IMG/VR virus record: IMGVR_UViG_2579778633_000005
Span: 1 to 21,861 of that record
Source: a virus
Lineage: Duplodnaviria; Heunggongvirae; Uroviricota; Caudoviricetes
DNA length: 21,861 bases
Strand: one strand, 5' to 3'
Shown here: positions 2,643-14,405 of the stretch, piece after piece
Position numbering within the stretch: position 1 is the stretch's first letter
Layout of the letters: every line of letters starts with the position of its first letter
Program-made: the position numbers and the translations under genes
Notes under the pieces: generated by a model
What the model was told of the DNA's origin: nothing
Databases searched by the model: none
Seen by the model: only the letters and a program-made list of their open reading frames with translations

Positions 2643-4730
2643 CTATCCTATAACAACCCCATCAGTTAAACTTGTTGGCGGAGACCCAAATTTCCTAACC
2701 AACTGTCCTGATGAGTTCCTGAATAGATAGAATTTGCTACCAAATTCCATGCATGGAATACCTGTTCCTGTGGTGGTAGCCAATCCGAGATTTGTTGCAA
2801 TGAATGCCTTTCCATCGAAATTAATAATATTGCTTACGTTATTTACCCCGTGGTAGTTTGAAATCGAGCTAACCCAGTCTAAAGCTGTAGTTTTTGGATT
2901 AGTAATGTTCAATGCATTTGCAGCGGCCGTCAGCTTGTCTATGCGCAGGTTATCGATAGTTACTTTTCCGTAGTTATCAATCGCCAAAGCAGTGGCAGGG
3001 TTACGTATATCGATGTTACGTCCTACAAACTCGCTAATGTTCTTTATTCTCGGAGCGGTTTTAATTCCGGTCAAGGTGCAAGTATAGTTCTCGACTTTGA
3101 CGACCCCAAAGGTATCTCCTCCGTTAGTCGTGTTTATACTGAGAGCATTCTGCACGTTTTCACTTGTTACATTTAAAATTTTAGCATCAATTACGCCAGA
3201 GTTCTCAATATTAACGTCAGCGTTAGCACCGTTTATGTACACACCATCGAGTGTAGCTTTACGAGTAAGTGGAGAGTTGCTCGGATACATGCTAATGATA
3301 ACCCCCATCGTATTATGACGAACTGATGGGTTATCTTCATCCTCTACCGTATTCTGGTGATAGATTCTTGTACCTTGCCCTATGTACACGTCATAGCTTC
3401 CAGATAGACGCATACCCCACTTGCCTTTCTTACTCCCGATATTGTTGCAATATGCACCGAGAACAACCCCAGACGATATCTGGAATACAGGGCTGCCGTC
3501 AGAATTGTCTTCAGAGGTCATCAATATTGGCTCTCTCCAGCGGGATACCTGATATGACCCGCCGATTACCTTGAAGTTAGCGGTACTGTAGAAGGCCATG
3601 CCGTTACGGTCAGTATCATAAGTGCGACAACGCGTCACCTGCACATCAGTACAGAACATAAACATTATCCCAGGTTGACCGCCACGAGAGCCATAAGCAT
3701 TAACAACCGAGCAGTCAGTTAATTTAATGCGAGTGGCCTGGTGGAACCAGAAACCATTAAATGTTGACTTATCTGATGCTGTGTCCCACGTCACATTAGA
3801 CTTATTACCATCAATAATAAGCCCATTTACCGTGATATCATAATGCTCTGGCGTTTCAGCGTCATAACTATAGCCTTTACGGTTTGTAATACCTGTAGAT
3901 ATGCCAAGGTAGCTTCCGGGCTTAAGCTTAAGTGTGCACCCGTAGGCGTCAATGGTCGTTCCTGTTTTAACAATTAAAGGTGTCCCGTCCCAGTAAATTG
4001 TTCGTGCGGGGAAATGAACAAGAGGCGATCCTGAATTTAGAGCGGCATTAATTGCAGCAGTATGGTCTCCAGCATAATCCATCTCAGGGGTAATAAATTG
4101 TTCAACGCTGACCGGTACGCCATATCCACGCTGTGCATTGCCAACACATTTCCAGTTCGAATCTGGTGACGATCCAGCTAAGACATTTATTGGATAAGGA
4201 AACGTCCCATTGTACTGATAGTGGTAACCATCACTATATAAAGCCACATCTTTACTGTCATTTAGCGTCCCGCCAGAAACGAAACTAGCTATTCTTTTAT
4301 AATACGATTCAAGATAGTCACTATATACATTACCGTTGTATGAACTACCAACAAGCTTATCTCCTCCATTGGTGGTTATTTCCTGTCGTAATTGATCAGG
4401 GTCATACTTCAGTACATTAGGAAAATAGAACTGCTGAGCACCGTAAGCATCATATACAGCCATAGAATGGCCTTGCACAGTTACGAACTTAGCAATCTGT
4501 CCGTTATATACAGGGTAACCAGCAGCGTTAAGGATGATTGGTTGCGAAACAGGAACGTGAGAACCGTCTTCGTTCTCCACATAAACCTGAACCTGGTTTT
4601 CAGGATTTACCGGGTCAGTGTCAATTTTACCGATATAAATTTTGCCATTAGCTACAGCTTTAAAAGAACGCGCCATAGTGAAGAGTTGCGATGGCATGCT
4701 TACCACAACATTGGCTGTAATGTCTGTCAT
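2643..4730 (-). CDS. Tailspike protein (695 aa): P22 gp9-type N-terminal domain fused to a divergent receptor-binding/depolymerase domain
   Basis: First ~110 aa ([113 protein letters not shown]) are near-identical to the P22 tailspike head-binding domain as I recall it. The remainder is Gly/Asn/Thr-rich and unrelated to the P22 receptor domain. Confidence 0.85.
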
Positions 4731-4798
4731 TTAATTTGCTCCAGATACAAGGAATCGCCGCGGCGTGGCCGCAGTGATGCATTATTAATCAAACAAAG

Positions 4799-4813
4799 AG
4801 ACCACGGTGGTCT
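4799..4813. promoter_or_regulatory. Mnt operator-like palindrome AGACCAC-G-GTGGTCT
   Basis: Perfect 7-bp inverted repeat around a central G, sharing the CCACGGTGG core of the P22 Mnt operator as I recall it. Located between divergent mnt and tailspike starts, next to a candidate mnt promoter (-10 GATAAT at 4834-4839). Confidence 0.5.
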
Positions 4814-4876
4814 TATTGAGGATGCAACCAGCAGATAATAAGATGCCGATCCACTCACAAAAGCGAGGCATCAAGA

Positions 4877-5128
4877 ATGGGAAGAGATGACCCGCAATTT
4901 AATCTGCGGCTACCTTACGAATTAAAGGAAAAACTAAAACAGCGAGCCAAATCCAATGGCCGCTCTCTTAATTCAGAATTAGTTCAGATAGTGACTGATG
5001 CTGTATCAAAGCCATCCAAAATTTCAGGCTATCGAGACGATGCGGAACGCATCGCTGATGAGCAGTCTGAACTTGTTAAGAAGATGGTGTTTGATACGCT
5101 GAAGGATTTGTACAAAAAACCCACCTGA
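4877..5128 (+). CDS. mnt: Mnt repressor (ribbon-helix-helix, Arc/MetJ family, 83 aa)
   Basis: Sequence MGRDDPQFNLRLPYELKEKLKQRAKSNGRSLNSELVQIVTDAVSKPSKISGYRDDAERIADEQSELVKKMVFDTLKDLYKKPT closely matches P22 Mnt as I recall it. RBS GAGG 9 nt upstream. Confidence 0.85.
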   Translation: MGRDDPQFNLRLPYELKEKLKQRAKSNGRSLNSELVQIVTDAVSKPSKISGYRDDAERIADEQSELVKKMVFDTLKDLYKKPT

Positions 5129-5137
5129 TGGTGGGTT
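5115..5137. terminator. Bidirectional hairpin between convergent mnt and lipoprotein genes; strong intrinsic terminator for the minus-strand transcript
   Basis: Stem AACCCACC / GGTGGGTT (8 bp) with loop TGAT. On the minus strand it is followed by TTTTTTGT; on the plus strand by CCATTT. The mnt stop codon lies in the loop. Confidence 0.55.
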
Positions 5138-5144
5138 CCATTTA

Positions 5145-5564
5145 CTAGTCTTGCTTTGTGGACGGTATAAGGGATGCATTTGCCTCTTTAGGCTTCAAGG
5201 TATACATACCGCCATTAAATGGATCTACAGCAAGCCAACCAATTAACCCACCAAACACAAGGTTTCCACCAATATACCAACCATTAGCATTGGCTTTGAT
5301 TGGCAGGGTAACTGGTTCGTACCCATCCTTCTCCATAGTGATCTGGTAGCTCTTTTTGCCAAAATAACTACCATCTGACTTGGCAAGAGTTACTCCTTGC
5401 GGGGTCTTACCTTGCGCAACAATCACGCCTGATTCGTCTTTTACCTTAAAGCTCGCGCCGGAAGGATTGCTGTTCACTTGCACAAGCTGTGTTTCGTCAC
5501 CAACAATAGTTGCGCACCCAGATAACAATATAGCGCCAGCAACGACGCCGATAATCCTCTTCAT
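5145..5564 (-). CDS. Predicted outer-membrane lipoprotein (139 aa), function unknown (moron)
   Basis: Signal peptide MKRIIGVVAGAILLSGC with lipobox LSGC and Ala at +2. Segment SNPSGASF...GKTP...KDGYEP resembles a PEGA-type beta domain (tentative). Sits where P22 carries sieA. Confidence 0.6.
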   Translation of the reverse strand: MKRIIGVVAGAILLSGCATIVGDETQLVQVNSNPSGASFKVKDESGVIVAQGKTPQGVTLAKSDGSYFGKKSYQITMEKDGYEPVTLPIKANANGWYIGGNLVFGGLIGWLAVDPFNGGMYTLKPKEANASLIPSTKQD

Positions 5565-5698
5565 ATTACTTTCCGTTTTGTTAGAATCAGAAAGATCTTA
5601 ATAATAAAAAGTATTTTCGTGAAGATATTGTCGATTGAGTTAATAACTCATTTACACCCAACAGTGCCATGATGGCAAAGATAAGGAGAGTTAATCAT

Positions 5699-6184
5699 AT
5701 GAAAAAATCACTGTTAATTATCCCGCTTCTGCTGGCAGGGTGTGCAAAGGTTAGCGACTATCAGGAAAATTGCGAACAACGCTATCCAAAGCTTAGCGAT
5801 ATGGCTAATTGCCTTGATGCTAGCGTGAAGAACGACTCACGCATGGCATCAGCACCAACACCTAAGTTATATGTCCTTGCTGCGAAGATGCTCGGGCAAG
5901 GTGTCGATGATGGCAAGATAAGTGACGCGCAGGCAAGACTTGAGCTTCAGAATCTTTATGTTCAACTACAAAGCCAAGAACAAGCCCAACAAATAGCGCA
6001 AAGCCAAGCATTCCAGCAGGCTTTATTGAATTATCAGGCTGTAAACACAATGCAAGCGATCGAGCAAAAAGCGAGACAGCCTGTTATAACTCAACCCTAT
6101 CCAACACGAGTTGACACTTACACAAACTGCAATTCAGGGTTTGGAAATACAGTCACATGCAACAGTAGCAGTAACATCAGATAA
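5699..6184 (+). CDS. Predicted outer-membrane lipoprotein (161 aa) with Gln-rich coiled-coil-like segment, function unknown (moron)
   Basis: Start chosen at ATG 5699, with RBS AAGGAG at 5683-5688, rather than the track's 5669. Signal peptide MKKSLLIIPLLLAGC with lipobox LAGC and Ala at +2. Divergently transcribed from the neighbouring lipoprotein gene. Confidence 0.55.
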   Translation: MKKSLLIIPLLLAGCAKVSDYQENCEQRYPKLSDMANCLDASVKNDSRMASAPTPKLYVLAAKMLGQGVDDGKISDAQARLELQNLYVQLQSQEQAQQIAQSQAFQQALLNYQAVNTMQAIEQKARQPVITQPYPTRVDTYTNCNSGFGNTVTCNSSSNIR

Positions 6185-6274
6185 CAATCAGCAAAGGTAT
6201 CGCCTATGCAGAGGGATAAGATAAACCTCGCGTTCTACATATTTGGTTTTTGCACGTTCCTGGTGTTTGAAAAG

Positions 6275-8272
6275 CTATTCTGACAACGCATCAGACTTAG
6301 CCCCCTGCGTCATAGCGTTAATTGCCTTTTGTGCCTGCTGCATGGCTTTCTCAAACGCTGTTGATCCGCGTGGGGTGTTTGCCATTCGGAGCATTGCATT
6401 TCTGAATGGCTCGCTCTCATAGGCGCGAGTAAGAAGTCCGTAGCTTACTGCTGCGCCAGTTGTCGCCGGGTTCATTGCCGTCCCATACCCAATAATGAAC
6501 GGGATAGTTTGCTGTCCTGTGGGTGTTGTTACTGCCGCTTTTGCAGCCTGCTGCGTGGATTGCAGGTAGTTTTTTAATCCTTTCAGATAAGCAGCGTCCT
6601 GCCCCTTAAATGTGATGCCAGTCTGGTTTTGCAGGATGTTAAGCTGCCGAAGGAACTGGTCAGGGGATCCGCCAGATTTCTCCATCGCCTTTCCAATGAT
6701 GCCATTGCGCATTTGCGCCCTGCCAACACGACCAACTGAGTTATACAGCGTCTTAATTTCCGATTTGTTCTTGCTGAATAGCATGTTGTTGACGACTTCC
6801 GGCGTCAGGTCGCCTTTCATGAGAACATTCTTCAGCCTTGTATTCTTTAGTTTCGCCGCTTCGTCAGCGTAGACGGCATTGGCCTGCTGATATTTACGGA
6901 GAGTATCGTTGCCAAGATTCTGACCAATGGCACCATTGATATCGTCAGTCATTGCCTTGTAAACGCGTTGAATGGCAGCATCGGAACGGTTTGGTAACAC
7001 TGGTCGCTCACCCTTCACGTCCATTCTGAACTGGCTGCGCAGGTCGCTTAATTGCTTCAAATCCAGATTTACCGGACCATCAGGGCCAGCATTGCGAACA
7101 AGCTCATCACGATATGACTGAAGTTTTGAAATTGTCTCGTTATCAGCTACCTTACCAAGCTTCTGCAGATTAGATATCTCAGTATCAATCTGCTGAATTG
7201 CTCGCGCAGGCTGGATATTGACTCCCGCCATTGCATTCTGAACTTGCTCAAGACGGTTCCCTGCAGCACGACGAATTCCTGATGTTTTCGCTTTAAGGCT
7301 GTCAATAACAACCGCTGGATCGTACTCGCCGAATTTATCAGCAAATCTCTGCACCAACTGGCTTCTCGCTTCCTGTTGCGTTGCTCTCATTCCGCTTGTG
7401 CCGGCCAGAGGGATATTTTCTGCTGTAGTCTGCGCCATTTTTCCGACGCGGGAAGTTGGTTGTAACAGGTCTGTGGTGTGCAGAGGAATTCCTTCACGCT
7501 CTGCAAATCTGATAGCCTGCTGCGCTTCTGGCGCTATCGAACCACGAACGCCACGATAAGCAGCACCTAATCCACGTCCGGAAGCGTTAATAGCACCGCC
7601 AGCAAGTACACCAACGCCTAAATCGGTGGCGAGTGCTTCCGCATCATCTTTCGCACTATTTGCAGCAAGTGATCCAACTGCGTTTTCTGCTAGAAGGCGA
7701 GTTGCCCCCTGAGCAATTCGACCAGCAAGTGTTGGTGCCTGTACCGCCGCTCTCTCAACGCCAGCAGGAGTGAGGTAAGGCAATGCTTCAGCAAATAACC
7801 TTCCCTCTGTCGTTTGTGGAGTCAGCGCACCTTGCTGAAGGCCAAAGTCCTGCTCTAATCCCTGCGTTGTTACTCGTGGTGCTGGTTGATATGTACCATC
7901 GCCAATACCGAGTTTACCGCCAGCCCAAGCCGCCGCGCTTGTTACAGCATCGGCAACTGATGCAGGTATGTTTGCCACGTTCACGCCAGCCTGCACCAGT
8001 CCGCGACCAGTCTCTTTTACTGCTTCACCAAGATCAGACATAAATCCACTTTGCTGTGGTTGTTGCTGTGCTACTGGTTGTTGTGTCTCCACTGGCTGCA
8101 CAGATGGCAATGGATAGGCAGCATAGAAAGCTTTCTTAGCCTGCTCTGCATTTTCTCCGGCTTGCGGGGCCACGACTTCATTGAAGTATTGCTCCTGAGC
8201 CTGCGCTTTTTGTTCTGGTGCTAACGCCTGATACTGTGGAGAGGCGATAACATCTTTCCATGCTTTAGCCAT
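6275..8272 (-). CDS. Injection (ejection) protein, P22 gp16 family (665 aa)
   Basis: Position in the conserved P22-like order gp7-gp20-gp16 just before the mnt/tailspike region; large Ala/Gln-rich protein. Start overlaps the stop of the upstream gene. Confidence 0.65.
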   Translation of the reverse strand: MAKAWKDVIASPQYQALAPEQKAQAQEQYFNEVVAPQAGENAEQAKKAFYAAYPLPSVQPVETQQPVAQQQPQQSGFMSDLGEAVKETGRGLVQAGVNVANIPASVADAVTSAAAWAGGKLGIGDGTYQPAPRVTTQGLEQDFGLQQGALTPQTTEGRLFAEALPYLTPAGVERAAVQAPTLAGRIAQGATRLLAENAVGSLAANSAKDDAEALATDLGVGVLAGGAINASGRGLGAAYRGVRGSIAPEAQQAIRFAEREGIPLHTTDLLQPTSRVGKMAQTTAENIPLAGTSGMRATQQEARSQLVQRFADKFGEYDPAVVIDSLKAKTSGIRRAAGNRLEQVQNAMAGVNIQPARAIQQIDTEISNLQKLGKVADNETISKLQSYRDELVRNAGPDGPVNLDLKQLSDLRSQFRMDVKGERPVLPNRSDAAIQRVYKAMTDDINGAIGQNLGNDTLRKYQQANAVYADEAAKLKNTRLKNVLMKGDLTPEVVNNMLFSKNKSEIKTLYNSVGRVGRAQMRNGIIGKAMEKSGGSPDQFLRQLNILQNQTGITFKGQDAAYLKGLKNYLQSTQQAAKAAVTTPTGQQTIPFIIGYGTAMNPATTGAAVSYGLLTRAYESEPFRNAMLRMANTPRGSTAFEKAMQQAQKAINAMTQGAKSDALSE

Positions 8273-9567
8273 TAATCACCCCATAGTGAAGAAAAGTTAC
8301 TGCCAGTAGTAGATTGTTGCCCTGGCATATTCTGAACCGGCTCCTGATAATCAAACTGTTTTTTAACAGTGCTCAACTTGCTTTCAAGCTGATTTCTAAT
8401 CTTTCCGATAGAGTCACGAAAAGCCTTTTCACTCATTTTGGGGCTTAGGGCACCAACCGCATCGGATAATTTTTTACCCTCAGCATCTGAAAGAGCGCCC
8501 ATACCCTTCAGGGACTGCACCATAGGAAGGAATGTTTGAGCTTTAAAGGTGTCGAGCCTTGCTTCAAAGTTAGCCGCATCAGAGCCAGGAACTGTCGGAA
8601 ACGCTGAGCGAATTCCTACTGCTTTTGAAAGGCCGGGGCTTTGCTCTATCTCGTTGAGAGAATCAAGCGCGGTGCTGAACGTATCAACTGCCCCCTGAGC
8701 GGCGGCCTGCCTGTCAGCGCGGGCTATGTCAGCCTTTTGCCGAACATCTGCCTGTTTCTGTTTTAGCTCTTCAAGCTTTAACTGATTGCTTTCTCTGGCT
8801 ATCTGTCTGTCCAGAGCCTTTTCTTGTAATTCTGCTCTTTGTATTTCGCGGGAAAGAGCAGCATTCTGTGCGCTGATGTTCTGTCCACGTATCTGGATGT
8901 CCTGACCACGCGCTGTTAGTGCTTCTCCAGCCTGATTGCTGCGGATTGTCTCTGCCAGCCTGCCTCGGTCAATTTCACGACCAGCCATCTTGTCCTGAAC
9001 ATTGAAGTAGTCAATCGGGCCAAGAGCAGCCATTCCAAGGTGATCAACAAACTCACCAAATCCTGAAGGATTCTGCTGATACATCTGAGCAACACTGTTA
9101 GGGTCAACACCGACGCGAGTCAGTTCCTTGGCGTTGTTTTGCAGCCATGATTGCATTGCTTCTGGAGACGATGACGCAAGGCGTGCGCCAGCCGCTAAGG
9201 TGCCGATAGAATTACGCTGATCTTCATCAATGAATCCCATGCCTTTACGAACGGATTCAATCTGGTCTGGATATTGAGTAGCCAACTGACGCAAAGCACC
9301 GCGATCACCAGACGCATAAGCATTAGCGTACGCCTGCTGAAATTCTTTCTGCCGCTGAGCCTGCTTTTCCTGCTGAAAAACACCCGCAATACCAGAAAGA
9401 CCTTGCAAAGCTGTCAGCCCAACATTGTTAGCGCCTGAACGCTCAATATCATTGTTCTGCCTGATAAGCTGAAGCGTGTTGCCGATGTCATTTACGCTCG
9501 GAGCGTTTGAGTTGACGCCGCCGATACCAGCCAACAATCCGCCATTTGATCCTTGCCAAGTAGCCAT
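8272..9567 (-). CDS. Injection (ejection) protein, P22 gp20 family (431 aa)
   Basis: Synteny between the gp7 and gp16 homologues; N-terminus MATWQGSNGGLLAGIGG is glycine-rich as in gp20-family proteins. Confidence 0.65.
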   Translation of the reverse strand: MATWQGSNGGLLAGIGGVNSNAPSVNDIGNTLQLIRQNNDIERSGANNVGLTALQGLSGIAGVFQQEKQAQRQKEFQQAYANAYASGDRGALRQLATQYPDQIESVRKGMGFIDEDQRNSIGTLAAGARLASSSPEAMQSWLQNNAKELTRVGVDPNSVAQMYQQNPSGFGEFVDHLGMAALGPIDYFNVQDKMAGREIDRGRLAETIRSNQAGEALTARGQDIQIRGQNISAQNAALSREIQRAELQEKALDRQIARESNQLKLEELKQKQADVRQKADIARADRQAAAQGAVDTFSTALDSLNEIEQSPGLSKAVGIRSAFPTVPGSDAANFEARLDTFKAQTFLPMVQSLKGMGALSDAEGKKLSDAVGALSPKMSEKAFRDSIGKIRNQLESKLSTVKKQFDYQEPVQNMPGQQSTTGSNFSSLWGD

Positions 9568-9576
9568 GATTACCCC

Positions 9577-10269
9577 TTAAAACAACGAGCCAAGCAATCC
9601 GATACCAGCACCAATGCCAGCGCCCCAAGGTGTTGATGTTTCCAAAAGGCTGGCAAGACCTGCACCGGCAATCGCACCGGACGTTCCGCCGCTAATTGCA
9701 GTCTGAAGACTTGATGGTTTATTGGCATTAGCAGCGGCAAGTGCTGCGCTTTGCTGTGCAATGCTGCTCATGTTGTTGGCGTACGTCTGCCCGGCGTTTG
9801 CCTGACCTTGCAGCGCACCAAGCCCAACGTTTGCCAGATTGTTGTAGTTGCTCATCTGATTTGATAACCAAGACTGACCGAGTGTCGGCGCGATCGTAGC
9901 CAGTTGATTGCTTGTGGCTGTCGAACCAAGTCCACCCGTCGCCTCCGCAGCAGCAAGACTCTGGTAACGCGCCTGCCCTGCAAGGTCTTTATACTGCTGA
10001 GAGTTGTAATACTGATTAAGTGCCTGCCCCTGACCTTCTAAACTGGAAAGGTTCTGAAGCTGGTTAACATACTGCTCCGCAAGAGGCGTGAACGGAGCAA
10101 GGTTTTTCATGATCGTCTGCCACTGCTGATTTTGCAGATCTGCAGCATACTTCTGAGCTTCTGCTGCATACTTTGCGCTTTTATCAGAACTGCCACCTTT
10201 CCCGCCTTTTTCAGGGCAATAAGGTTCCTCGCCGCGCAGTTTTCTGCCCAGCTTAAATGCATATAACAT
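9577..10269 (-). CDS. Injection (ejection) protein, P22 gp7 family (230 aa)
   Basis: MLYAFKLGRKLRGEEPYCPEKGGKGGSSDKSAKYAAEAQKYAADLQNQQ... and the Gly/Ala-rich C-terminus ...GIGLLGSLF closely match P22 gp7 as I recall it. Confidence 0.8.
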   Translation of the reverse strand: MLYAFKLGRKLRGEEPYCPEKGGKGGSSDKSAKYAAEAQKYAADLQNQQWQTIMKNLAPFTPLAEQYVNQLQNLSSLEGQGQALNQYYNSQQYKDLAGQARYQSLAAAEATGGLGSTATSNQLATIAPTLGQSWLSNQMSNYNNLANVGLGALQGQANAGQTYANNMSSIAQQSAALAAANANKPSSLQTAISGGTSGAIAGAGLASLLETSTPWGAGIGAGIGLLGSLF

Positions 10270-11428: not shown

Positions 11429-12846
11429 TACTCAATCCTTATCTGGCAGCCTGACAGAGTGACAGGTGACTTCGTGATAACGCGCAATTTGAAGCCGACA
11501 TTTTTCCTTATTCGCCCGACACGCTTCCACAAAACACGCTTGTCGTAAACGAACGGTTCATTCTGCTCAATCATCTGCTCACGCCCGTAATTGATGCCGT
11601 CAGTGGTTGCAGAGAGGAACAGGCGGTCAGCGTACTGAGCAACACCAGTCGATGATTCAACTTCCAGATCAAAACATCTGGCGTTCTCAGCTTTGAAGAG
11701 TGGTGTAAACAACAGGTGTTCTTGCTGTAGCCCATACTGGCTGCTGATATCGAACTGCAATTTGCCGATAACCGATTCCAGCTTATCTCCGCACGTTATC
11801 TGATTGCCTTCGTAAATGAAGTCGATAGCGCGGTACACATCGTCATACAGGCCTGTTTTCAGTACACACCATTGCGGACCATTGGCGCTTGAAGATGCGT
11901 CGTACACGAGAACATGGCGCGGAAGGTGGATAATCAGCAACTCATGAGCATCAAACCGCAACGATTCCATCACGCCATCAGCCAGTTCATCAGCAGTGTA
12001 GGAGCGGAGGATTTTCTCAATGCTCGCGCTGGCGATTGGTGATACCTGACCGGAGCCGATGATGTAAACAGACGGCGCACCTGTTGCCGGATTGCTGATG
12101 AACGCATACGAATCAGCAAACGGCGTTTTGCAGTAGGTTCCGGCGATTCCTTTTTGCACCATCAACGATGGCTGGGCGACATACAAAGCGGCACCAACAG
12201 TGGTTGCACCAGTCAGGGAAAAATATTCAATCGTCGATGAACCAAAGCAGACGATGAAGTCTCGCCATGTTCCGATGCCGATGATGCCGTCAGGCTGCGA
12301 TTCTGCGCGATATTGTGCGCTGTATCGGTCAGGATGTGATTCGTCTTCAAGGTCAGTGATAAACCATGAATCAGTGCCGTCTTTTGACCACGCATAACGC
12401 CCACGTAAGCGCGTAATGTCGCGTACTGAGCCTAACTCATACTGCGTGAATCCGCTGTCTGTAGGCCAGTTTGAGACGGTTTTAACCGTGCCATCATAGC
12501 GATACTCGACCAGTTTCCCGTTAACGCCTACCGCCTGTGATGTCCGACCATGCGCCATTGATACACGACCACTTCCGGCGACGTCACCGACTTCACTTTC
12601 GCCTTTGTACAGCTTGCCACCACACACGCGATAAACAGCATTCTGCGCCATGTTGTACTCGACGCCACGCGATACGCCGTTCACATCAGAACGTTTGGCA
12701 ATGCCCGGGAATGAGCGAAGATATCCGCTGCTGTTAAGGATTTCTTTTGGTGTAGCCAACATATTCACTGGCAGATAGTCGATATAGTCGGCGTTTCGGA
12801 AGTCTTTGCCGACACCTTTCATAAGCGGAAGTTGCTGAATCGGCAT
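11428..12846 (-). CDS. Tail accessory protein, P22 gp10 family (472 aa)
   Basis: Same length as P22 gp10 and correct synteny (gp4-gp10-gp26); start overlaps the upstream stop. Confidence 0.7.
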
Positions 12847-12905
12847 TTATTCACCTATGCGTTTGGGATATCGCCATCAATCAGAGGGAGATCGCCTGGA
12901 TAATA

Positions 12906-13337
12906 TCAGTCAGATGTAAACACGTCATATTTATTACCCTGTCCTACAGGAAAATCTCCACGTCGTCGCATTGAAGGAACAACCAGAGTGTCGGTCATCA
13001 AGGCATCATATGAGCGTTGGGCGTTACTGAGAACTTGCGGAGTTGGTTCAAGGCTGTAATCAGATAGCATTCTCAGCAATAACTGATAGCCTACTGCGTG
13101 TTTGTATTTTCTTGGAAGACCTGACTCATCATCTGGTAATGGCTGATCATCTCCAGTTGCGAAAGCGTAACCAATGTCGCCGGGGTTAATCATCCACTCG
13201 GACATCATATCTTCCAGATCATTTACACCATCTTCAATTGATTGCGGCTCAACATCAGTCAGCGATGCATTAGAAGCAATAGCAAACTTACGAAGCGCAA
13301 AAAGGACGATCTCACCCTTTGTCAGTACTGTTGCCAT
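12906..13337 (-). CDS. Tail accessory / head completion protein, P22 gp4 family (143 aa)
   Basis: N-terminus [48 protein letters not shown] aligns with P22 gp4 as I recall it ([32 protein letters not shown]...). Confidence 0.75.
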   Translation of the reverse strand: [143 protein letters not shown]

Positions 13338-13497
13338 TGTCTGCCGCCTTACGACCTCGCTTACTGGTCGGTTTCAATTCATCAACTGAGGCAACAAAGC
13401 CCAACCTTTCGAAAAACTGGAAGTCTTTTTCTGCGATAACGGCCTGTACATGCCCGGATTCGTTATCTGCGGCAAGGAATACACTCATCCGATCCAT
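13312..13497 (-). CDS. Small hypothetical protein (61 aa) between the coat and gp4 genes
   Basis: ORF begins 8 nt after the post-coat terminator and overlaps the gp4 start by 26 nt. Called on position only; P22-like phages such as Sf6 carry a small gene between coat and the gp4 homologue. Confidence 0.35.
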   Translation of the reverse strand: MDRMSVFLAADNESGHVQAVIAEKDFQFFERLGFVASVDELKPTSKRGRKAADNGNSTDKG

Positions 13498-13504
13498 ATT
13501 GTTT

Positions 13505-13534
13505 CCTTAAAACATAAAAGGGGCGTAAGCCCCT
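13505..13534 (-). terminator. Intrinsic terminator-like hairpin after the coat remnant
   Basis: Stem AGGGGC / GCCCCT with loop GTAA at 13519-13534, followed on the minus strand by TTTATGTTTT; begins 5 nt after the coat ORF stop. Confidence 0.5.
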
Positions 13535-13539
13535 TGTTA

Positions 13540-14106
13540 TTACGGATTACCGAAGAACTGACCGCCCATGTGAGGGTTAAAGCACACATATGCAGGCAGT
13601 AAGTCGAAGCGCATTTTTTGCACGTTGGCATCGCCATCTGCGTATTTATGTACGCGGATGGAGAAACCTTCATATGTTGCAACAGCAGAATCAATACTGT
13701 GCAGTTTCGGCAGTGGGATAGAGCCAAGTCCACAGAAGAACTTGTTATAGAACAGGTTTGGCTTCATTGTCTGGCTAGCAGTGCCTACTACAGATACGTC
13801 ATCGCCTGCATCTACCTGACGACTTACAGAGTTGTACTGCGGGTTTGTAGTGTCATAAATCGGAACACCAGAAAGCGTAACCGTCACATCGCCACCGCTG
13901 TCTGAATCAGCATCAGCAGTAACCGTTGCAGTGAAGCTAATTGGTGTGGCTCCGTTATACAACGCCTGTTTGGTCTGCTGTTGCAGCCAGTAGGTATTGG
14001 TGAATTTGACCTGATCACCAGCTTTCAGAAAACCTGTAACGCTGGCTTTCGCTCCGGTCAATGTTACAGTGAACTGGTACGGGGATTCATTCGGGCCAGC
14101 GCCCAT
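13540..14106 (-). pseudogene. Probable 3' remnant of the major coat protein gene (188-codon ORF), N-terminal part deleted
   Basis: Occupies the coat position just before the gp4 block but is less than half the ~425 aa of P22-like coat proteins. Its 5' end overlaps the 3' end of the truncated terS reading frame. Identity as coat is inferred from position, not from recognised sequence. Confidence 0.45.
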
Positions 14107-14405
14107 TTGCGGGTATCAACGCGAAGTCTTGCCTTTGCCACCTCGGCGGCATCTGGAATCGCAGTGTCAGCAATTTCGAATATCTCTTCGAAAATAGAAT
14201 CAGCTCGTGCCTCAGTTGCCTTCGCGTACTTGTCGCGAAAATCCTCATGCTTTGCCAACCAGCGGAAAACAGTGGACTTATCCGGCATACCAGGACGCTT
14301 ACATACTTTCAGCAAACTTTCGCCAGAAGAAAGCAACGAGCAGATATCGTCAGCCACCTCCGGCATATAATCAGAGGGGCGACCAGCTTTTGGTTCAGTC
14401 GCCAT
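14064..14405 (-). pseudogene. 5' remnant of small terminase subunit gene (113-codon ORF; frame lost after ...ARMNPR)
   Basis: MATEPKAGRPSDYMPEVADDICSLLSSGESLLKVCKRPGMPDKSTVFRWLAKHEDFRDKY... matches my recollection of the Sf6-type small terminase (~140 aa). The ORF ends early and is followed directly by a coat-like 3' segment; no terL, portal or scaffold genes are present. Confidence 0.5.

Follow-up and report, generated by a model that had tools for sequence, protein, structure and literature searches.

In P22-like phages, the interval between genes 16 and 9 is a fast-changing region, the 'ant moron', which holds sieA in P22 (PMC2629481). Ten moron types have been described among sixteen P22-like genomes (PMC2629481), and sieA itself occurs in 22 of 66 sequenced P22-like phages, always at the ant moron location (PMC10883804). 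SieA, of which types A, B and C are distinguished, is a polytopic inner-membrane protein of ~160-210 amino acids, with three or four transmembrane helices and the motif FxRYPxEAxxFNK. Its proposed targets are gp20 and gp16, reached from the inner membrane, and 85 bp of the sieA leader are enough for its functional expression (PMC10883804). A further point of comparison is gp15 of HK97, a small inner-membrane exclusion protein derived from host YebO, whose gene is a moron in the tail gene cluster that is expressed from the prophage (PMC3594210). The locus considered here lies in a 21,861-nucleotide stretch of viral DNA (the window; positions 1 to 21,861 of IMG/VR record IMGVR_UViG_2579778633_000005), which comes from the left end of a P22-like (Lederbergvirus) prophage of Escherichia coli. 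Its ant moron carries two divergent open reading frames, ORF A and ORF B, each predicted to encode a small lipoprotein. The reading favoured below, tentatively and at somewhat less than even likelihood, is that they are two independent moron cassettes, of which ORF B would block phage entry and ORF A would act on a conserved component of the envelope.

Lipoprotein signals and gene boundaries

The first-pass annotation of this locus described two unrelated proteins, each with a signal peptide, a lipobox (LSGC or LAGC) and alanine at position +2, and each preceded by its own ribosome-binding site. The coordinates, the invariant cysteines and the assignment to different PHROGs (phrog_6823 for ORF A and phrog_6067 for ORF B) agree with that description. 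ORF A (5145-5564, minus strand) encodes a 139-residue precursor that begins with MKRIIGVVAGAILLSGC, followed directly by ATIVG; its LSGC lipobox occupies residues 14-17 (5514-5525, minus strand) and ends in Cys17, with alanine at +2 and ATI at +2 to +4. ORF B (5699-6184, plus strand) encodes a 161-residue precursor that begins with MKKSLLIIPLLLAGC, followed directly by AKV, with the LAGC lipobox at residues 12-15, Cys15 and again alanine at +2. Both precursors combine a short basic N-terminus (MKR in ORF A, MKK in ORF B) with a hydrophobic core and a lipobox of the bacterial form [LVI][ASTVI][GAS]C in which the cysteine is conserved. The Shine-Dalgarno sequence of ORF A, GGAAAG at 5569-5574, lies 4 nucleotides 5' of the ATG and is modest, and that of ORF B is AAGGAG (5683-5688). 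The true start of ORF B is the ATG at 5699, 10 nucleotides after this AAGGAG, where all homologs begin; the listed start at 5669 adds ten codons that are not conserved.

In alignments of diverse homologs, the lipobox cysteine is invariant in 40 of 40 ORF A sequences and in 37 of 37 ORF B sequences. Across hundreds of prophages from many genera, the reading frames are intact and the signal-peptide and lipobox residues do not vary. Pairwise ratios of nonsynonymous to synonymous substitution (dN/dS), computed against alleles with a dS of 0.25-0.5, fall between 0.03 and 0.06 for both genes (0.03-0.05 for ORF A and 0.04-0.06 for ORF B). The conserved signals, the invariant cysteines and these low ratios together indicate that both are real genes under purifying selection. 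In E. coli, a lipoprotein without aspartate at +2 is sorted to the outer membrane, and both proteins are predicted by this rule to be outer-membrane lipoproteins.

The two genes had also been described as lying back-to-back. They are in fact arranged head-to-head, diverging from a 134-bp spacer (5565-5698) that is best read as a mosaic joint between two cassettes. Promoter calls in the spacer are consensus matches only: the scan gave two weak sigma-70-like sites facing ORF B (5560-5587 and 5578-5605), and the total of such sites was no higher than in shuffled controls. Beyond the 3' end of ORF A, an intrinsic terminator hairpin at 5116-5139 on the minus strand (-18 kcal/mol, z = -3.4) overlaps the mnt stop codon and is followed on that strand by the run UUUUUUG; the plus-strand hairpin is weaker, and the homologous hairpin in phage epsilon34 is annotated as a Rho-independent terminator. 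The strong terminator previously placed at 5115-5137 is thus real as a hairpin, but because the U-run is on the minus strand it belongs mainly to ORF A, and a fold-energy scan found no terminator-like structure between ORF B and gene 16.

ORF B in the sieA position

In the P22 record, the genes run in the order 9(-), ant(-), arc(-), mnt(+), orf59a(+), sieA(+), 16(-), and in the window the order is 9, mnt, ORF A, ORF B, 16. Because the two orders match at this point, ORF B shares both the position and the orientation of sieA: it lies between genes 16 and 9, points in the same direction as mnt and converges with gene 16, a placement that ORF A does not share. The proposal that this is a sieA-equivalent locus accordingly holds for the ant moron as a whole and for ORF B, which occupies the sieA slot, but not for ORF A, which lies outside it.

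The exchange of sieA for ORF B can be traced to the ribosome-binding site in a group of E. coli prophages represented by locus L035. These are 92% identical to P22 from mnt through orf59a, and the identity ends ~7 nucleotides before the sieA start; ORF B stands in place of the sieA reading frame, and homology to P22 returns in the 3' end of gene 16. In a three-way alignment, the sieA/ORF B junction falls at the Shine-Dalgarno sequence AAGGAG, and the order mnt-orf59a-ORF B is found in 18 IMG/VR loci. Since the 85-bp leader drives sieA, ORF B in the L035-type prophages most likely inherits the prophage expression of sieA. ORF B follows mnt at a distance of 15-18 nucleotides in prophages of Yersinia and in Proteus phage Brookers, which suggests an mnt-ORF B operon, and in Morganella it is the sole gene between gene 16 and the tailspike gene.

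Searches by tblastn with P22 SieA (type A) and with the HS1 protein (type B, picked by its position and the motif FNRYPGEARKFNK) found neither SieA type in the window or in ~100 ORF B loci, and ORF B and SieA are mutually exclusive in all loci examined. The likeness between the two is one of slot, of convergence with gene 16, of orientation relative to mnt and, in the sister prophages, of leader. In contrast to SieA, ORF B has no transmembrane helix after its signal peptide (the highest 19-residue hydropathy in that part is 0.47), shows neither sequence similarity to SieA nor its motif, and instead bears a lipobox and a predicted outer-membrane anchor.

The ORF B family comprises 91 clusters in a single-sequence search and 104 in a profile search, all from Enterobacterales and none with a Pfam domain; apart from a single relative of 30% identity, the profile search added nothing from outside Enterobacterales. 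Every close relative examined belongs to a P22-like prophage or phage and converges with gene 16, be it in E. coli (80 IMG/VR loci, dominated by near-identical prophages), Citrobacter, Morganella, Yersinia, Serratia (a remnant), Tatumella, Proteus phage Brookers or Salmonella phage VSe13. The distant relative of 30% identity (locus L185, 6001-6423; 140 amino acids) comes from a different phage type, in which it lies in reverse orientation between a Peptidase_S74 tail-fibre gene and large structural genes, an arrangement that echoes the P22-like layout.

Among 5426 complete E. coli genomes, counted at megablast sensitivity and hence with divergent alleles missed, ORF B was found in 186, type A SieA in 35, type B SieA in 21 and a P22-type gp10 marker in 923. 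The two tested SieA types together account for 56 genomes at most, against 186 for ORF B. Only about a third of sequenced P22-like phages have sieA (PMC10883804). In E. coli P22-like prophages, ORF B fills its slot in about 20%. It is this prevalence, together with a swap of sieA for ORF B that is precise to the ribosome-binding site, that is new here.

In its structural model, mature ORF B consists of a helical domain with the conserved residues Cys25 and Cys38 and a Gln-rich helix, and its C-terminus carries a conserved cysteine pair around a G-N motif. A kinship to GspK, given in a source annotation and by an NCBIfam hit (E 0.0014, 18 bits against a cut-off of 130), was dismissed as a match to the Gln-rich helix. 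The idea that ORF B might be an inhibitor of a gp16 lytic transglycosylase domain, in the manner of T4 Spackle, was also dropped as speculation. PGAP names this gp16 type as a lytic transglycosylase type and the Tatumella gp16 has PF01464; Pfam, NCBIfam and PDB sequence searches found no lytic transglycosylase domain in the gp16 of the window, and the occurrence of ORF B beside two unrelated gp16 types also counts against a Spackle-like role.

ORF A and other occupants of the moron

That the two genes form a unit is contradicted by their distribution. ORF A is present in 17 of the 80 ORF B loci and ORF B in 16 of 74 P22-like ORF A loci, which rules out an obligate pair. ORF A is instead a cassette of its own, attached to mnt at the 3' end of that gene and running in the direction of the late operon, and the sieA slot is taken by ORF B only. 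Both genes differ in presence and absence between syntenic phages, as morons do, and ORF A has in addition a terminator of its own. At most P22-like loci, ORF A is linked to the mnt 3' end through the common hairpin, and it is sense to the late transcript, which has to pass through here to reach the tailspike gene.

Gene 15 of epsilon34 is the ortholog of ORF A (98% identity), whose family has 728 clusters; the ORF A allele is present in 124 of the 5426 complete E. coli genomes. The mature protein of 123 amino acids is predicted to fold as a PEGA-like beta-sandwich. Its match to PEGA (PF08308) reaches 17.6 bits, under the gathering cut-off of 20.8 (E 0.0037), and its relatives score 12.6-19.8 bits, although the predicted fold is compatible with that domain. 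PEGA and transthyretin-like domains (PF08308, PF13620) have a generic fold that is uninformative on function, and the ORF A family is set apart from them by a Gly-rich insertion. This near-invariant, hydrophobic stretch, NGWYIGGNLVFGGLIGWLAVDPFNGGMY, spans residues 94-121 (5202-5285, minus strand), and within it residues 96-115 have a predicted local distance difference test score (pLDDT) below 50, with confident strands on either side and both flanks in one domain. A true transmembrane helix at residues 96-115 is unlikely, given a Kyte-Doolittle 19-residue maximum of 1.30, below the transmembrane threshold, and flanks that pack into a single domain. The stretch may form a membrane-dipping loop or an oligomer interface.

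Within Enterobacterales, the short form of the family also moves as a moron outside the P22-like phages. Siphoviral prophages of E. coli and Proteus carry homologs of 68-71% identity immediately upstream of the tape-measure gene, in the slot of HK97 gp15. In lambdoid tail clusters, further copies follow the tape-measure gene or separate K from I or I from J, the gene identities there being deduced from order and length. In all phage contexts seen, ORF A points the same way as the late or tail operon, and in the P22-like and lambdoid contexts alike its own terminator follows; in the lambdoid copy L002, a stem and then T8 occupy 8436-8461. The E. coli lambdoid prophages with an ORF A homolog upstream of the tape-measure gene (L002-L005) also carry a porin gene (Porin_1/Porin_4; ~12261-13424) between M and L, two of the minor tail genes, which adds another outer-membrane moron to that operon.

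Relatives of ORF A with 52-60% identity, usually longer at ~170 amino acids, occur in Halomonadaceae, Pasteurellaceae, Nitrosomonas, Gallionellaceae, Mariprofundus and deltaproteobacterial genomes. In Enterobacter, a copy of 81% identity is an ordinary chromosomal gene, and chromosomal homologs are present in Photorhabdus, Lonsdalea and others. The neighbours conserved around these chromosomal homologs belong only to common housekeeping families (EAL/GGDEF, ABC-F, MurJ, GNAT) and form no operon. The one recurring functional neighbour is found in Pasteurellaceae (Lonepinella and a relative; L127, L129 and L148, ~4397-5486), in which the ORF A homolog follows ~10-17 nucleotides after a PF13505 gene for a small outer-membrane beta-barrel; the two may form an operon, judging by this spacing. 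Clear homology to housekeeping lipoproteins had been proposed as a sign of host-derived filler, and for ORF A this sign is half present, in the 81% homologs of Enterobacter and the 52-60% homologs of distant Proteobacteria. These chromosomal homologs are themselves without an assigned function, and the repeated entry of ORF A, together with its own terminator, into moron slots of two phage types tells against plain filler. Through ORF A, phage moron slots are linked to a lipoprotein family that is widespread in Proteobacteria and has no name, which offers a genetic entry point to what that family does.

The view that neither sequence is recognizable was upheld, as no characterized family was matched, though no Llp model was among those looked at by name. 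No study of either protein family came up in searches of the literature and by accession; PADLOC families gave no match for either at E up to 1; and Pfam, at the same threshold, returned only PEGA for ORF A and nothing for ORF B, with no Bor/Iss and no glycine-zipper family. Profile searches of the PDB gave nothing significant for either protein. Structure prediction and fold search, which had been suggested as a check, did yield the PEGA-like beta-sandwich of ORF A, but the fold searches returned nothing specific and, for ORF B, no informative neighbour. Membership in Cor was rejected: phrog_1119 matches the signal peptides only (residues 1-20 and about 1-30), and NF047972 scores 11.7 bits against a cut-off of 31 (E 0.19). 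Membership in Bor/Iss, SieA or PADLOC families was ruled out by the Pfam, tblastn and PADLOC results. The Cor- and Bor-type comparisons made in the first-pass annotation therefore survive as analogies alone.

Cor (phi80, N15, HK022) and Llp (T5) are likewise small phage lipoproteins that lack an inner-membrane retention signal and whose genes lie close to those for tails or host recognition; ORF A differs in being conserved far beyond the hosts of any one phage, which argues against its binding a single variable receptor such as FhuA. Bor of lambda and Iss are prophage-encoded outer-membrane lipoprotein morons, as ORF A and ORF B are predicted to be, but differ from them in size, predicted fold and genome position. 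With the glycine-zipper outer-membrane lipoproteins of the SlyB/Pcp/YfgH type, ORF A has only its Gly-rich hydrophobic stretch in common, and no Pfam model of theirs matches. A parallel for ORF A is HK97 gp15 (PMC3594210): homologs of ORF A sit where gp15 does, with the tail chaperone gene on one side and the tape-measure gene on the other, and show the same gene-plus-terminator layout and many chromosomal homologs. Although ORF A is unrelated to gp15 in sequence and is a predicted beta-sandwich lipoprotein, these shared traits suggest that it is, like gp15, a captured host envelope gene.

The sieA slot has other occupants elsewhere in P22-like phages, or is empty. In 12 of the 74 ORF A loci, the slot partner is a protein like epsilon34 gp14/hkcB, with an N-terminal hydrophobic segment and a coiled coil. 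In ~40 of the 74, judged by spacing, it appears to be a 129-residue protein with a Sec signal, one locus of which (L200) was inspected. At that locus, the protein (4494-4883, minus strand) has the Sec-type signal peptide MKQFLTVMFLFISFGATA and no Pfam match, and represents a third unrelated occupant of the sieA slot. In Citrobacter (L010, 6497-6886; L011, 2578-2982, minus strand), a different putative lipoprotein (…LLVSGGCSVYN…), unrelated to ORF A, occupies the position and orientation of ORF A and forms, with ORF B, another divergent lipoprotein pair. In Tatumella (L184), a periplasmic protein of the Rap1a family, which is type VI immunity-like, is encoded between mnt and ORF B (4604-4942), and gp16 (5468-8125) has the SLT lytic-transglycosylase domain PF01464 fused to a P22_gp16 domain. 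The alternation of unrelated, apparently envelope-targeted proteins (SieA, ORF B, the hkcB-like protein, the 129-residue protein and the Rap1a-like protein) is a recurring theme of the ant moron site.

Possible functions and the prophage setting

By their behaviour, ORF A and ORF B can be regarded as prophage envelope morons from families without a characterized member. In the favoured reading, ORF B would be made in the prophage state and would serve as a superinfection-exclusion factor against incoming P22-like phages, blocking assembly of the gp7/gp20/gp16 DNA conduit at an outer-membrane or periplasmic stage; it would be an outer-membrane counterpart of the inner-membrane SieA. ORF A would be made during late transcription, and possibly in lysogens too, and, because of its extreme conservation outside phage hosts, would act on a conserved envelope component and not on one variable receptor. 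Its effect may be phage exclusion, envelope robustness or a benefit late in infection. If ORF B does block entry, it would open a second way to study the passage of podophage ejection proteins through the envelope, from the outer-membrane and periplasmic side, and would bear on host-range prediction for O-antigen-specific phages in therapy and typing.

Several observations weigh against this reading. ORF B resembles SieA neither in sequence nor in topology or predicted compartment, and the analogy of position is a weak one, as the ant moron also carries the non-exclusion genes mnt, arc and ant. The gp16 encoded next to ORF B is of two types, with 98% and 34% identity to the gp16 of the window, so ORF B tracks no single gp16 allele and shows no co-variation with its presumed target. 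Its structural model is of modest confidence (pLDDT 62), and the structural-neighbour search was uninformative. For both proteins, outer-membrane sorting is predicted solely from the +2 rule. The spacer scan found no promoter-like site facing ORF A, and ORF A is 52-81% identical to chromosomal genes of bacteria without such phages, which indicates a general envelope role. The entry-blocking role of ORF B is thus a candidate one, drawn from position and sequence. A bolder version of this role is one that we consider rather doubtful. In it, ORF B would represent a new class of exclusion protein, a periplasmic lipoprotein anchored in the outer membrane that halts P22-like podophages by disturbing, from that side, assembly of the gp7/gp20/gp16 ejection conduit; no other gene would fill the sieA slot of E. 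coli more often, and the slot, next to gene 16, would be a dedicated site of exchange for unrelated entry blockers that target the envelope. In that version, ORF B, in ~1 in 5 P22-like prophages and about three times as common as both tested SieA types together, would join SieA, the 129-residue periplasmic protein and the hkcB-like membrane-anchored coiled coil as candidate blockers.

One or both lipoproteins might instead be lysogenic-conversion factors that serve the host, through serum or complement resistance in the manner of Bor/Iss, stabilization of the outer membrane under stress in the manner of glycine-zipper lipoproteins, or defence against contact-dependent attack, with no effect on phage entry. 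Such a role would suit the ORF A family, which is chromosomal and highly conserved across Proteobacteria, adjoins an outer-membrane beta-barrel gene in Pasteurellaceae, and has a Gly-rich hydrophobic stretch whose invariance suggests that it touches a conserved component of the membrane. It would also suit the persistence of both genes intact in a prophage that has lost its capsid genes, and the Rap1a-like type VI immunity homolog in the same moron of Tatumella. Yet the close relatives of ORF B were found only in P22-like prophages and, within them, only in the sieA slot, a distribution not easily squared with a general fitness factor, the phage homologs of ORF A cluster near DNA-delivery and tail-tip genes, and Pfam placed neither protein in the Bor/Iss or glycine-zipper families; on balance, we think a purely host-directed role possible but on the unlikely side.

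A role in the lytic cycle, for ORF A especially, appears improbable. ORF A could in principle mask or alter the envelope late in infection as T5 Llp does, sparing progeny from loss on debris, help to disrupt the envelope, or control tailspike expression through its terminator, which is strong and stands on the route to the tailspike gene. Its constant co-orientation with late or tail operons, its place between genes 16 and 9 on the path of the late transcript (PMC2629481) and the lack of a promoter-like site facing it in the spacer scan are all in keeping with this. However, ORF A is absent from most P22-like and most lambdoid phages and is hence dispensable, a gene with its own terminator is the classical moron layout, expressed from the prophage as in HK97 gp15 (PMC3594210), ORF B is antisense to the late transcript, and the lysis cassette of the window already has a separate Rz gene. 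Finally, the idea that both genes lack a function, either as filler from the host or as passengers decaying in a recombination hotspot, was already disfavoured and is very improbable indeed. It can draw on the close chromosomal homologs of ORF A, the rapid flux of the region (PMC2629481) and the apparently defective state of the prophage of the window, but neither the low dN/dS ratios nor the intact frames and invariant lipobox residues fit decay, and the same is true of the 186 and 124 E. coli genomes that carry ORF B and the ORF A allele, respectively, and of cassette junctions placed exactly at the ribosome-binding site.

Within the window, the moron is bounded on the left by mnt (4877-5128, plus strand), an Arc/Mnt-family maintenance repressor gene (Pfam Arc E 2.8e-22, Repressor_Mnt E 2.2e-18) that is labelled Mnt in phages 720R6 and Gally. 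Its right boundary is a gene 16-type ejection (DNA transfer) protein (6275-8272, minus strand), assigned from the DNA transfer/injection annotation in the closest phages, whose 3' end lies 90 nucleotides from the ORF B stop codon. Gene 16 is accompanied by gp20 (PF16928) and gp7 (PF25688), and the ejection-protein genes 16, 20 and 7 together span 6275-10269 on the minus strand. Genes 16 and 20 have a GC content of ~50%, the moron one of 42-45%. Among phage records, those of the E. coli phages vB_EcoP-720R6 and Gally come closest (98-99% identity over 4800-6300), and in them ORF A and ORF B are both labelled hypothetical proteins.

The prophage is integrated at a tRNA-Arg gene (argW; tRNA-Arg(CCU), 1009-1083) that adjoins a host formate/nitrite-transporter gene of the yfdC type (1-933), and an IntS-type integrase gene (1209-2399) follows the tRNA gene; E. 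coli LR-29-1 carries an intact relative at the same site. The prophage of the window appears to be defective. Positions 12900-14079 are 99% identical to phage Sf6 5603-6782, a stretch that begins in the 3' part of the coat gene and takes in the gp4 homolog. Within the 12900-14405 region, an open reading frame of 188 amino acids matches positions 250-423 only of the P22 coat profile and abuts and overlaps a small-terminase fragment (14064-14405). The large terminase, portal, scaffold and coat N-terminus are gone, and the deletion is estimated at ~5 kb.

Between mnt and the tailspike gene, mnt stands alone (4731-5128), with no arc, ant or sar, so that there is no antirepressor gene in cis for this Mnt to repress; comparable mnt-only morons of ST64T-type phages were described in the epsilon34 paper. 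The tailspike gene (2643-4730, minus strand) encodes the P22 head-binding domain, and its resemblance to the closest phages is confined to this domain, the first ~120 residues. The receptor-binding part differs even from that of the near-identical LR-29-1 prophage, which points to a different O-antigen specificity.

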